A model generated the notes under the pieces. That model was given only the letters and a program-made list of their open reading frames with translations. It did not search any database and was not told the DNA's origin. From Promethearchaeota archaeon (GTDB taxonomy: Archaea > Asgardarchaeota > Lokiarchaeia > Sigyniarchaeales > SOKP01), in NCBI GenBank assembly GCA_048938855.1, contig JBHLLT010000011.1, positions 1 through 64,000 on the forward strand: DNA of 64,000 nt, written 5' to 3'. Position 1 is the stretch's first letter, and every line of letters begins with the position of its first letter. The translations under genes were made by a program, and so were the position numbers. Positions 43,367-47,166 of the stretch are shown piece after piece.

Positions 43367-43753
43367 TTGGGAATAAATCAAGATGATATTGAAAAAATTA
43401 GTCCTCAAATTACTTTTATAACATCGAACGCAGATATTGAGGCGATTGCACTTGTATCTCAAGAAGGGTACCAAATAGCATTTAGTGCATTACCACATTA
43501 TCATGTTGATGGAGATCAATTTTGCGGACTCTCAAGTGCATTACTAATGACGGGAAGATCAACAATTCAAACATTATTTCAAGAAGATCTAAGTGAGATT
43601 ATTGTTCGAGCTCAAGATGGATATATTGTAATTACCAATGCAGGGAGATTAGTCATTGTGTGTGCTGGTACTATTATTGATACACTAATGAAGACTGTAA
43701 AGGTTATGAGAATTGCTGCTAAAAATCTTTATAAAATTTTTGAAGATCGTTAG
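43367..43753 (+). CDS. roadblock/LC7 (MglB-like) domain protein
   Basis: IEAIALVSQEGYQIA...LSEIIVRAQDGYIVITNAG. Confidence 0.9.
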   Translation: MGINQDDIEKISPQITFITSNADIEAIALVSQEGYQIAFSALPHYHVDGDQFCGLSSALLMTGRSTIQTLFQEDLSEIIVRAQDGYIVITNAGRLVIVCAGTIIDTLMKTVKVMRIAAKNLYKIFEDR

Positions 43754-43872
43754 CTTAAATTATCTTTTTTACTAATTTTAAATATTATAACAATTTGTAC
43801 CCTAAATCAATAGGTTTTTAAATAACTTACTATATTTAAAACAGAATAATAAGTCATTAATTATTTTTATTC

Positions 43873-43920
43873 ATGTCGATTCTAAGAAATATAGCGTGGC
43901 AGTGGCTTTATTGGCATTAA
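43873..43920 (+). CDS. putative Trp-rich leader peptide (TrpL-like), MSILRNIAWQWLYWH
   Basis: 15-codon ORF with three TGG codons among the last seven, about 150 nt upstream of trpB2. Confidence 0.7.
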   Translation: MSILRNIAWQWLYWH

Positions 43921-43975
43921 AGCCAATTGCATTTGATATTTCTTAATCTTATTTTTTCATTTTAATATTTTTACT
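43878..43975 (+). promoter_or_regulatory. putative attenuator: long hairpin over the leader ORF followed by oligo-T tracts
   Basis: TAAGAAATAT(43883-92)/ATATTTCTTA(43936-45) and TGGCTTTA(43903-10)/TAAAGCCA(43918-25); T tracts from 43949. Confidence 0.6.
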
Positions 43976-44071
43976 TCAGAATATTAAAAACTCTTCCTAA
44001 ATGCGCGTTAATTATTTTGATTTCCAATTTATTAATGACACACATCTTAAGGTGTGAAAAAACGAATATAA

Positions 44072-45487
44072 TTGGTAACTAAAATGATAGATTACTTTAA
44101 AGGAAGAATTATATTACAGCCAAATGAAATTCCAAAAGATTGGGTAAATATATTACCGACATTACCCTCTCCTATGACGCCCTTAATTAATCCGATGGAT
44201 GGGAGACCTGCACCCCCAGAAATGGCATTTGCTATATTCCCAAAAGAGTGTGTTAAGCAAGAGTTCTCTCTAGAACCTACAATCCCCATTCCAAAAGAAT
44301 TAAGGGAAATTTTTGCAAATTCATATAGACCCAGCCCTCTACATCGGGCATTAGGTTTAGAAAAAGAGTTAGGAATAGAAGGAGAGAAAATCAAAATTTT
44401 TTATAAAAATGAATCAACATCTCCTACTGGCTCTCATAAGCCCAATACTGCCATAACACAAGCATATTATGCTAAAAAAGAGGGACTAAGTGAATTGGTT
44501 ACTGAAACAGGTGCAGGACAGTGGGGATCTGCTTTAGCTTATGGATGTTCCCTTTTTGGCCTTAAATGCACAGTATATATGGTGAGAGCAAGTTATTTCC
44601 AAAAGCCAGGGAGAAAAATTATGATGAGATGTTTTAATGCTAAAGTACATCCAAGTCCTTCAAAATTAACAGAATCTGGGAAAAAATTCCTAAATAAGGA
44701 TCAAGAACACCCCGGTAGTTTAGGAATCGCCATATCTGAAGCAATAGAACATAGTATGAGAAGTGATAAAATTAAATATTCTCTTGGAAGTGTAGTCAAT
44801 TTTGTTCTTCTACACCAGACTATTATTGGACAAGAAGTGAAAATACAATTAGCAAAAGTAGGTATTCAACATCCTGATGTAATAATAGGCTGCATGGGTG
44901 GAGGTTCCAACTTTGCAGGTCTAATGCTACCATTTGCAAAAGATAAACTAGAAGGTCAGAGTCAAGATATGGAAATAATAGGCGTTGAACCTCGGGCATG
45001 TCCCAGTGTATGCAAAGGAGAGTATAGATGGGATTTTGGGGACTCTTCAATGAAAGGGCCAATATTAAAGATGTACACATTAGGTCATAATTTCATCCCT
45101 AGCCCAATTCATGCAGGGGGATTGAGATATCATGGAATGGCTCCGATAATTTCCATATTAAATAATCACGAGATTATAAAAACTACAATGCATCATCAAA
45201 CTGAAGTAATTGACGCAGGTATTCAATTTGCTAAAGCAGAAGGTATAATTCCAGCTCCAGAAAGTGCTCATGCTATAAAAGAAACAATTGATCAAGCTCT
45301 CAAAGCTAAAGACAACAATGAAAAAAAAGTTATTTTGTTCAATCTTAGTGGTCATGGTTTCTTTGATCTGTTAGCTTACGAAAAATATATGAATGGAGAA
45401 TTAGTGGATTATGAATTGCCTACAAGTCAAATTCAAAATTCACTCAAATCAGAAGAAATGCCAAAGATTGATGAATCTCAATTTTAA
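44072..45487 (+). CDS. trpB2: tryptophan synthase beta chain 2 (TrpB2), PLP enzyme
   Basis: SPTGSHKPNT (PLP Lys), TETGAGQWG, GGGSNFAG, IHAGGLRYHG, APESAHA, NLSGHG; start may be ATG 44084. Confidence 0.95.
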   Translation: MVTKMIDYFKGRIILQPNEIPKDWVNILPTLPSPMTPLINPMDGRPAPPEMAFAIFPKECVKQEFSLEPTIPIPKELREIFANSYRPSPLHRALGLEKELGIEGEKIKIFYKNESTSPTGSHKPNTAITQAYYAKKEGLSELVTETGAGQWGSALAYGCSLFGLKCTVYMVRASYFQKPGRKIMMRCFNAKVHPSPSKLTESGKKFLNKDQEHPGSLGIAISEAIEHSMRSDKIKYSLGSVVNFVLLHQTIIGQEVKIQLAKVGIQHPDVIIGCMGGGSNFAGLMLPFAKDKLEGQSQDMEIIGVEPRACPSVCKGEYRWDFGDSSMKGPILKMYTLGHNFIPSPIHAGGLRYHGMAPIISILNNHEIIKTTMHHQTEVIDAGIQFAKAEGIIPAPESAHAIKETIDQALKAKDNNEKKVILFNLSGHGFFDLLAYEKYMNGELVDYELPTSQIQNSLKSEEMPKIDESQF

Positions 45488-45584: not shown

Positions 45585-46613
45585 TTGAATGTTATTTCCA
45601 TAATAATTATATGTTTCTTATACCTGTACGGGTTAATAATTTTTTATATAACTTATTTAGCAAAAAAAAAGAACGAAAAAGGAGCTTTTATAAATAACTT
45701 AACAAACGGATTAATTTTCATATCTTCAATTTCGATTAATTTAATTATCTCTAATTTATATGACTTCCCAATTAGAGAGTTTATTGATTTTCCCTTAAAT
45801 ATTTTAATGATTATTTTAATTATATTTTTTCTACCATTATTTTACATCTTCATAACTCGAGAGAAACACAGAATTAAAAAAAGTAAAAAAAATATTAATA
45901 AACTCGAGCTTCAATCTTCTACAGAACTTCCTCTTAAATATGATATATATAGAAAATTAACACATTTTGTTGTATTAGGAATTATTTTCTTTTATTTCAG
46001 TCTAGGTCTTTTATTACAAAACCTTTTCATTAGTATGGGCTGGGATATAATGATCTTTTCACAAAATTTAGTAGTCTTCTTGGTTATGATTTCTTTAATA
46101 GGTTTACTAACCGCGGATTTTGTGAGAATATTACAACCAGAGTTTTATCCATTAAAACCAGTCAATCAACTATTAAGGGAAAAGGAACTTCATATGAGGT
46201 TAGGACCTCATATTTCCATGAGTATTGGATGTTTTTCCATAATTTTACTTTACGGTATAATTCAACCAATTGGACCAGTGATAATCTGTACTTCAATGGC
46301 AATGTCTATTTTTGGAGATGCCACAGCAAATTTAGTAGGGAGGACAATTGGTCAAAAAAATATTAGAAACACTAAAAAAACATATGTAGGATTAATTGGA
46401 GGTATGATTGCAGCTTTTCTCTCTGGAATAATTGTATTATTTATATTAAGAAATTATTATAGATTTACTATTCCAGGGTTACTACTGATTCCCTTAATCG
46501 GAATGATGATCATTGGAATAATTGATTATTTGGATTTAGAGATTGATGATAATTTAACATTTAATTTTGGTGTTTCAACAATATTATTTTTTTGTTCATT
46601 TTTAATATTATAA
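45585..46613 (+). CDS. SEC59/DGK1/VTE5-family CTP-dependent lipid (polyprenol/diacylglycerol) kinase
   Basis: RKLTH, LLREKE, FGDATANLVG..G...KKT..G, IDDNL. Confidence 0.85.
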   Translation: MNVISIIIICFLYLYGLIIFYITYLAKKKNEKGAFINNLTNGLIFISSISINLIISNLYDFPIREFIDFPLNILMIILIIFFLPLFYIFITREKHRIKKSKKNINKLELQSSTELPLKYDIYRKLTHFVVLGIIFFYFSLGLLLQNLFISMGWDIMIFSQNLVVFLVMISLIGLLTADFVRILQPEFYPLKPVNQLLREKELHMRLGPHISMSIGCFSIILLYGIIQPIGPVIICTSMAMSIFGDATANLVGRTIGQKNIRNTKKTYVGLIGGMIAAFLSGIIVLFILRNYYRFTIPGLLLIPLIGMMIIGIIDYLDLEIDDNLTFNFGVSTILFFCSFLIL

Positions 46614-46653: not shown

Positions 46654-47166
46654 ATGAAAATGTTGGAAGAAAAATTAAAAATTGATAAAATATCTAAAGG
46701 AACTGTTATTGATCATATAGATGCAGGATATGCAATAACAATTCTTAATCTTACTGGTATTGATGAATCAAAAAATTTAATGACAATTGGTGTAAATGTC
46801 TTATCAAAAAAATTCAAGACAAAGGATATTATTAAAATCGAGAATGTTTTTCTGAATGAAACTCAAATGCAACAAATATCTATACTGTCACCTAATGCTA
46901 CAATTTCCCTAATTGAAAATTATAAAGTAATGGAAAAGAAAAAGGTGGAGCTTCCTAAGATCATTAAAAAATTGATATTATGTGTTAATCAAACCTGTAT
47001 AAGTAATTCGGAAAAAGAGCCTATTGACACGGAATTTCTAGTATTAGAAGAAAAACCCCTGAAAATTCAATGCGTTTATTGCGAACGTATATATAAATTA
47101 GAAGAAATTGTTTTCACTTCGAAAGAAAAAAAAGAAATGAAGGTAAAACAAAGAATTCAACTTTAA
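46654..47166 (+). CDS. pyrI: aspartate carbamoyltransferase regulatory chain
   Basis: GTVIDHI, KDIIKIE, CVNQTCISN, CVYCE. Confidence 0.95.
   Translation: MKMLEEKLKIDKISKGTVIDHIDAGYAITILNLTGIDESKNLMTIGVNVLSKKFKTKDIIKIENVFLNETQMQQISILSPNATISLIENYKVMEKKKVELPKIIKKLILCVNQTCISNSEKEPIDTEFLVLEEKPLKIQCVYCERIYKLEEIVFTSKEKKEMKVKQRIQL

Follow-up and report, generated by a model that had tools for sequence, protein, structure and literature searches.

A short tryptophan-rich open reading frame lies upstream of trpB2, a stand-alone tryptophan synthase gene, in a Promethearchaeota archaeon, and comparable frames stand 5' of trpB2 or of the trp operon in several further Asgard families. We studied it in the first 64,000 nucleotides (nt) of contig JBHLLT010000011.1 (assembly GCA_048938855.1), hereafter the window, on whose forward strand all features described below are located. 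The upstream open reading frame (uORF) occupies 43873–43920 and trpB2 occupies 44084–45487. As a tryptophan (Trp)-rich uORF, a conserved hairpin and U-rich tracts recur together before trpB2 or the trp operon, a ribosome very probably gauges the Trp supply at these loci, and comparison of the sequences leads us to regard the uORF, with high confidence, as a ribosome-stalling Trp sensor in a leader that acts in cis. The fuller explanation that we favour, with less confidence, is a Trp leader that probably controls hairpin-assisted termination before trpB2. A sequence-only reading of this region had already proposed a Trp-sensing leader, and the proposal gains support from the uORFs conserved before trpB2 and trpDCFBA, from the hairpin and from T-runs on the sense strand.

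A Trp-dense uORF and its conservation

The uORF has 15 codons and encodes the peptide MSILRNIAWQWLYWH, running from the ATG at 43873 to the TAA at 43918–43920, with TGG codons at 43897, 43903 and 43912. On direct reading this frame, its three Trp codons, the stems, the T-runs and a second hairpin are all where the sequence-only reading had put them. That reading had also named the downstream gene as trpB2, and the identity holds: the product is a TrpB-like pyridoxal phosphate enzyme (PF00291) of the stand-alone type that scores as a TrpB2 equivalog with NF009057 (642.8 bits, cut-off 366) and matches TIGR01415 (595 bits, cut-off 518.85). The ATG of the gene is at 44084 and not at 44085. A Shine-Dalgarno-like GGT (44074–44076) is found 8–10 nt before this ATG, within a GGTAA conserved in the alignment of relatives, and in other families the corresponding motif of trpB2 is GAGGTG.

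The genome has about 27% G+C, is 97% complete and contains one TrpB-like gene. Searches for TrpA, indole-3-glycerol phosphate synthase and TrpE gave no match in it and gave matches in all 14 control genomes; trpB2 is here presumably the step of indole salvage. Genome-wide, 80 of 39,484 ATG-initiated short open reading frames of 8–30 codons hold at least three Trp codons, most of them inside genes in other frames. Among 3,666 intergenic uORFs, collected 5' of genes that had been called crudely, a single one has at least three Trp codons within seven codons, and it is the uORF described here. Thus, the only Trp-dense uORF of the genome precedes its only Trp-forming enzyme, and this placement is beyond chance. 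A genome-wide family of amino-acid leaders was also considered; it is unsupported, since the genes that follow uORFs rich in His, Cys, Thr or Met are unrelated ones (for a peptidase M50-like protein, a glyoxalase, a tetratricopeptide repeat protein, an acetyl-CoA synthetase, a short-chain dehydrogenase/reductase and a flavin reductase).

The locus was compared at three scales: with 16 trpB2 loci of the same genus (78–85% protein identity), which together with the window give an alignment of 17 sequences; with 51 trpB2 loci of the family, hairpin and T-run statistics being taken over 48 loci; and with a 201-genome sample of Asgard archaea. As the sequence-only reading had anticipated, the trpB2 genes of relatives are preceded by Trp-codon uORFs. 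All 16 same-genus loci have an ATG-to-stop frame of 13–22 codons about 210 nt 5' of trpB2, with 3–5 Trp codons and the consensus WQWPWxWQ. In the alignment the ATG is invariant, the N-terminal half is variable and TGGCAGTGGCCTTGG is nearly invariant, synonymous sites included. Insertions and deletions within the uORF are always multiples of three, and the stop codon falls 0–3 codons past the last Trp codon in 16 of the 17 sequences (seven codons in L012). The copy in the window is short of one CCT-TGG unit relative to its relatives, a loss that left it with three Trp codons instead of four and with a private 8-bp stem. Across the family, an ATG-initiated form with WxW occurs at 38 of the 51 loci, a form with a TTG start at three and a two-Trp variant at three, while seven have no leader. 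At two loci of genus g2 (L026, from a closed 4.4-Mb genome, and L031) the leader has shrunk to a six-codon frame with one Trp codon (MAWHSL and MAWHRL), with the long hairpin and T-run of the family retained.

Beyond the family, Trp-rich frames ending 50–140 nt 5' of trpB2 were found in the Borrarchaeum family (..SWHPWRSWRWQ), in a Thorarchaeota family (QW[LH]WGPxGPV), in a family of 1.4-Mb genomes (..FWAWRWLLWP) and in several further Asgard families. Other families use WAW, WPW, WWW or WxxW and are without the TTGGC repeat that underlies the Trp codons here. None of 12 non-Asgard archaeal trpB2 loci has a Trp-rich leader. The neighbours 5' of the leader change from family to family; the leader is thus not tied to the Roadblock/LC7 gene that precedes it in the window, and by this comparison it appears to travel with trpB2. 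Five loci from three distant Asgard families (L151, L153, L165, L172 and L173) also share a motif, GGGAYTDGCKWTAAC, about 280–400 nt 5' of trpB2 where long Trp-rich frames begin, and in two of them it overlaps a tiny frame, MF[RQ]DWR.

This pattern of conservation argues for a real reading frame, whose translation we infer. Selection appears to be on the start, the frame, the Trp codons and the stop rather than on the peptide sequence, and the nearly invariant synonymous sites in WQWPW suggest an added constraint at the nucleotide level, namely hairpins. The same near-invariance of TGGCAGTGGCCTTGG would suit a different explanation, in which the TGG periodicity is an untranslated RNA or DNA motif: a TRAP-like oligomeric protein would bind TTGGC copies that recur at 6-nt intervals, and the frame would be a by-product. 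A random intergenic TGG triplet of this genome has, going upstream, an in-frame ATG before any stop in 18.7% of cases and, going downstream, a stop within four codons in 27.7%; both apply in 4.2%. An in-frame ATG and a near stop that are kept lineage after lineage while the flanks turn over are hard to reconcile with a repeat that acts purely as RNA or DNA. Furthermore, the loops of the hairpin around the stop differ (AATAGA, CTTAAA, CATGAA, TTTAATCA, GGTAATA) yet nearly always hold the in-frame stop, and other families do without the repeat altogether. We consider a protein-bound repeat very improbable.

A TnaC-like arrest peptide, in which the nascent chain together with free Trp would stall the ribosome at the stop codon, has an even smaller probability in our view. 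It would account for the conserved Q and P of WQWPW and for a stop soon after the last Trp. However, the C-terminal residue varies (Q, R, S, F, A, H or W) and 3 to 15 residues precede the Trp run, which makes such a peptide unlikely, and induction by Trp would make no sense for Trp-synthesis genes, including trpDCFBA. A third candidate, in which ribosomes would shift at the Trp codons (a hungry-codon frameshift) and enter a hidden frame reaching trpB2, was rejected as having next to no chance. Long +1 frames exist in a few relatives (160 nt in L009 and L013, 262 nt in L021), but at none of the 48 loci is the −1 or +1 frame open to trpB2, and in the window these frames end 26 and 16 nt past the uORF stop.

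Leaders before the trpDCFBA operon

The family also offers a second target. Full-length TrpA is found in four genera, three of which are those whose trpB2 is without a leader. All seven leaderless trpB2 loci belong to these three genera, and TrpA is present in six of the seven genomes. In the five of these genomes where the operon was checked, trpDCFBA carries a leader instead. Genus g18, which also has TrpA, carries a leader on each of the two units, and where a genus is without TrpA the leader is on trpB2. Among the operon leaders, ..STWFWVWCWHA has its stop in the loop of a GCACGC/GCGTGC hairpin with a T-run after it, and ..ITWFWAWRWRA likewise precedes trpDCFBA. The sequence after the stop of a third, ..GWQWPWRFE, is that of the trpB2 leader, which indicates that the two are homologous. 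In two further families, leaders of the forms ..WRSWWWI and ..WFCWLFWYW stand shortly before trpD. With the leader on trpDCFBA where the operon exists and on trpB2 otherwise, it would follow whichever unit makes Trp, and such tracking, as far as it can be read from these sequences, is in comparative work the classical ground for inferring an attenuator.

In genus g12 (L188, L193 and L194) the operon leader is about 420–480 nt away from trpD, and in L188 an unannotated frame of about 90 codons fills this gap and overlaps the start of trpD. Five loci from other Asgard families (L189, L190, L199, L205 and L206) have paired TGTACA boxes, 10 nt apart and 100–200 nt before trpE, and no Trp-rich uORF. 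We take TGTACA to be the operator motif of TrpY (the TRP box), and the pairs look like TrpY-type operator control. As they occur in leaderless families, Asgard archaea would use two different modes of Trp control. In the window, TGTACA is absent from 43754–44083, and its nearest occurrence is at 45072, inside trpB2.

Hairpins, T-runs and the proposed output of the leader

Hairpin H1 (43910–43927) pairs ATTGGC (43910–43915) with GCCAAT (43922–43927) around the loop ATTAAA, which holds the stop codon, and the last Trp codon is within its 5' arm. The sequence-only reading had given this stem as an alternative to an extended hairpin, and comparison across loci reveals that it is in fact the one conserved in relatives. 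The extended hairpin (43878–43948), which belongs to the minimum free energy (MFE) structure of the window's leader and competes with H1, is present as described: an outer 10-bp stem without mismatch (43883–43892/43936–43945), GCAGT/ATTGC with one G-U pair, and an inner 8-bp stem (43903–43910/43918–43925). It is not kept in orthologues, as both the outer and the inner stem are peculiar to this genome.

A predicted hairpin encloses the uORF stop at 43 of the 48 loci, and the mean MFE of the 43 nt around the stop is −11.4 kcal/mol, compared with −2.8 kcal/mol for 1,421 control uORF stops. The stems differ among genera: TTGGC/GCCAA, AGTGGC/GCCACT, GGCGTT/AACGCC, GTGGCA/TGTCAC, GGCGCC/GGCGC and GGCGACCG/CGGTCGC. 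The hairpin around the stop thus changes its sequence while its pairing is kept, which is the covariation that the sequence-only reading had looked to relatives for, and this change of stem sequence at an unchanged position is stronger evidence than the scores against shuffled sequences. For the 131-nt leader of the window the MFE is −29.9 kcal/mol, a value that none of 200 shuffles reaches; relative to dinucleotide-shuffled sequences, z = −4.25.

Four helices were tested in the genus alignment, namely H0, in which the first Trp codons pair with the start region, together with H1, H2 and H3. Jointly they are 85% paired, compared with about 40% when slid along the alignment, and ten pairs have changes on both sides. 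H2 (43960–43989; fold and alignment) has a 12-bp A/U-rich stem with six pairs changed on both sides, is followed by CTCTTTTT in most relatives and is deleted in the orthologue L008. H3 (44041–44056), CACATC/GGTGTG with arms at 44041–44046 and 44051–44056, changes from C-G to U-A in seven of the 17 sequences. An outer extension of H1 (GGCCUUG with CAAUGG) has no covariation signal because its 5' side is invariant, and when RNAalifold was applied to the whole leader, all helices that it retained were H1-like or belonged to the inverted repeat, and they had little covariation. At six loci (L004, L009, L010, L011, L120 and L123), but not in the window, H1 is directly followed by a mini-frame of four codons, M-D-x-x-stop, which uses the −1 frame and whose conserved stop is 26 nt past the uORF stop.

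Oligo-T tracts follow at 43949–43975, with T6 at 43952–43957, T4 at 43960–43963 and T5 at 43968–43972. They are a candidate archaeal termination or pause signal, as PMC8716108 and PMC11616081 describe oligo-T in this role, acting with FttA. Runs of five or more T within 60 nt past the stop occur at 35 of the 48 loci and at 36% of controls, and runs of five or more A at five of the 48 loci and at 35% of controls. In 12 same-genus loci a T6 starts 31 nt past the uORF stop, and one more has T5 there; at this spacing the 3' arm of H1 would be just out of the polymerase as it reaches T6. A strict hairpin-plus-T site was found at 21 of the 48 loci and at 4.8% of controls, the sole strict match in the window being the genome-specific inner stem. 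In some genera the strict site is directly at H1, with AACGC followed by TTTTT; H1 itself has TTTTT directly after it in one genus, and in another family a T-run comes after a 13-bp hairpin whose 5' arm contains the stop. The T-tracts after the uORF are not required for ending the Roadblock/LC7 gene, since that gene has its own T6 run (43765–43770) before the leader region, 5' of the putative leader promoter. The candidate promoter is a conserved TATA-like box, CAATAGG-TTTTTAAATA (43808–43825), about 50 nt 5' of the uORF ATG. The genus alignment places the box proper at 43815–43824, and not at 43831–43840, where a TATA-like element had been suggested before. In other genera a TTTATAA-type box is found 45–65 nt 5' of the uORF ATG.

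We propose that ribosomes on the uORF would report the supply of charged tRNA-Trp, the start codon, the alternating run of Trp codons and the stop codon being the only features of the leader that selection would maintain. When Trp is plentiful, the ribosome would pass the Trp codons, finish at the stop codon, which is in the loop of the hairpin, and depart. H1, or here also the longer form, would then fold behind a polymerase that slows on the oligo-T 30–55 nt downstream, and transcription would end with scant trpB2 mRNA. When Trp is scarce, the ribosome would stall on the Trp codons, which form the 5' (or outer) arm, and block the hairpin. The polymerase would then leave the T-tracts, and trpB2, whose product would make Trp from indole and serine, would be expressed. 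The folded hairpin would promote termination and the stalled ribosome read-through, with leader and trpB2 on a single transcript and a response that rises as Trp falls. We consider the chances evenly balanced that the output is indeed termination or read-through at oligo-U terminators.

Several points weigh against this scheme. A ribosome at the stop codon would also melt the hairpin, so that the scheme needs a kinetic window in which the polymerase dwells on oligo-T, which is assumed, and if the ribosome stalled already at the first Trp codon, the inner hairpin would stay free. Compared with shuffled sequences of matching composition, the stop hairpins are in only moderate excess (median z = −1.6; −3.9 for the window itself). 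T-runs are frequent in DNA of 27% G+C, as the 36% of controls attest, and in this genus T6 is about 25 nt beyond H1 and does not adjoin it. The sequence-only reading had proposed folding with and without a ribosome mask: the unmasked fold is strong, and among nine loci folded with the ribosome-covered stretches masked no recurrent, mutually exclusive antiterminator of the 2:3 type was found. The uORF is without a Shine-Dalgarno-like motif in this genus. Finally, trpB2 might be transcribed apart from the leader, from a proximal promoter in the block at −95 to −25.

Some of these points would be met if the same Trp-sensing uORF had another output, such as translation of trpB2, protection from 5'-to-3' decay or blocked access of FttA. 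In favour of such an output, no antiterminator was found, the T-tract does not adjoin H1 in this genus, spacers of 100–350 nt hold further conserved hairpins, and competition between FttA and the coupled ribosome has been proposed (PMC11616081). However, no pairing that would hide the Shine-Dalgarno motif or the start of trpB2 is conserved among relatives; the conserved block pairs with the Shine-Dalgarno motif in the fold of this genome only. A ribosome stalled 45–65 nt behind the polymerase would not obviously exclude FttA, and the enrichment of T-runs on the sense strand and the hairpin-plus-T sites at 44% of loci point to termination. Another output of the uORF is, on this evidence, rather unlikely.

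A separate proximal promoter concerns the most conserved non-coding stretch, 44000–44060, which contains a 10-bp palindrome, a long inverted repeat and H3; in the genus alignment its first part (44000–44037) consists of the near-palindrome AATGCGCGTT and the inverted repeat around TTGATTTCCAAT. The distal part of this block is at a fixed distance from the trpB2 ATG (−67 to −25) in L125 and L127, which have no uORF. A part that is kept without the uORF means that the block may be a proximal promoter with an operator, or a structure of the 5' untranslated region. If a promoter and a protein operator in this block mainly drove trpB2, the leader would be a separate short transcript that modulates at most, and the known Trp control of archaea does work through DNA-binding proteins (PMC6737238). 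On the other hand, the C-G to U-A covariation in H3 suggests that at least that part of the block is transcribed, and mere adjacency does not explain the phylum-wide tie of the leader to trpB2 or the trp operon despite changing neighbours. We regard it as improbable that the block is the main driver, and a proximal promoter and a leader would be compatible with each other.

Comparison with known leaders

The Asgard leader resembles enterobacterial trpL (Rfam RF00513) and the his, leu, thr and phe leaders in being a short frame rich in cognate codons just 5' of biosynthetic genes (Trp is three of the 15 codons here, and relatives have 3–5 Trp). As in these, codons and frame alone are conserved, and a hairpin and a U-rich tract follow. 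Unlike them, it is archaeal, its Trp codons alternate (WxWxW) rather than standing side by side, and it has a single hairpin, with Trp codons as the 5' arm and the stop in the loop, to which masked folding adds no 2:3 antiterminator. For termination it would depend on the oligo-T and FttA signals of archaea. There is also no Rfam match: a scan gave none in the leader at E ≤ 10, the Trp_leader model included, apart from a chance small-RNA match inside trpB2, and ten other Asgard leaders scanned for known RNA families gave none. A search for tRNA genes in the leader region was negative. Compared with its own genome, the leader intergenic region has no second copy except one weak 39-nt match, so that a repeat or mobile element is unsupported.

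In the E. coli pyrBI attenuator, the ribosome masks the terminator hairpin and UTP is sensed through polymerase pausing. That system is similar in that the leader frame overlaps the only hairpin, the position of the ribosome alone decides folding and no antiterminator is needed; it differs in sensing UTP by polymerase pausing rather than an amino acid by codon stalling. The same target gene family is involved in bacteria, where seven trpB2 loci from several phyla (L037, L045, L050, L070, L081, L084 and L103) have WWW or WWWW uORFs 100–300 nt upstream. Presumably they act as attenuators of the classical kind, on a gene for which stand-alone is the usual description. They have runs of three or four adjacent Trp codons, and the loci cannot be aligned with the Asgard leader. 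Mycobacterial polycysteine short frames, described in bioRxiv 10.1101/834739 as Cys-responsive attenuators, are likewise unannotated, rich in one amino acid and in control of downstream genes, whereas they are bacterial and leaderless and sense cysteine. TrpY of Methanothermobacter and Tar of Thermococcus control the same pathway in archaea, although as DNA-binding proteins that act at promoters (PMC6737238).

That 2019 study also notes that, TrpY apart, knowledge of Trp control in archaea is scant (PMC6737238). In the literature that we searched in full text there is no report of an archaeal Trp leader peptide; leaders are bacterial only, and TrpY and Tar are the only archaeal Trp control described. 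A tool paper states in general terms that uORFs regulate archaeal genes and gives no example, and the search found no map of Asgard transcription starts. We rate the Asgard leader as the logic of trpL outside bacteria, with an anatomy that is different and simpler and with another machinery of termination, for a type of control so far established only in bacteria. More specifically, Asgard archaea may have true ribosome-mediated Trp attenuation, in which a stalled ribosome decides oligo-U termination by a Pol II-like RNA polymerase, with or without FttA; we hold this view tentatively, at slightly short of an even chance. It would make the leader the first archaeal amino-acid attenuator, of minimal design with one hairpin and the stop in its loop, and sufficiently ancient for Loki-, Thor- and Borrarchaeum-type families to have it in common and for moves between the trp operon and trpB2 to have taken place.

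In textbooks, leader-peptide attenuation serves as the proof of functional coupling between transcription and translation in bacteria, and Asgard archaea are the closest known prokaryotic relatives of eukaryotes. A conserved and easily mutated cis element in this group would make it testable whether ribosome position controls termination by a eukaryote-like archaeal polymerase (oligo-U, FttA), and how amino-acid sensing by uORFs is related across the three domains. It would also mark trpB2 as a Trp-responsive salvage step in lineages whose de novo pathway is lost, which bears on cross-feeding of indole and Trp in syntrophic Asgard consortia.

The leader and trpB2 are flanked by genes outside the element. 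Downstream, the window contains pyrI (46654–47166), for the regulatory chain of aspartate carbamoyltransferase. No recognisable pyrB directly precedes it, and a 342-codon frame without a Pfam or NCBIfam match (45585–46613) stands in that place. Upstream, the Roadblock/LC7 gene spans 43367–43753 (PF03259, E = 6.8e-08).

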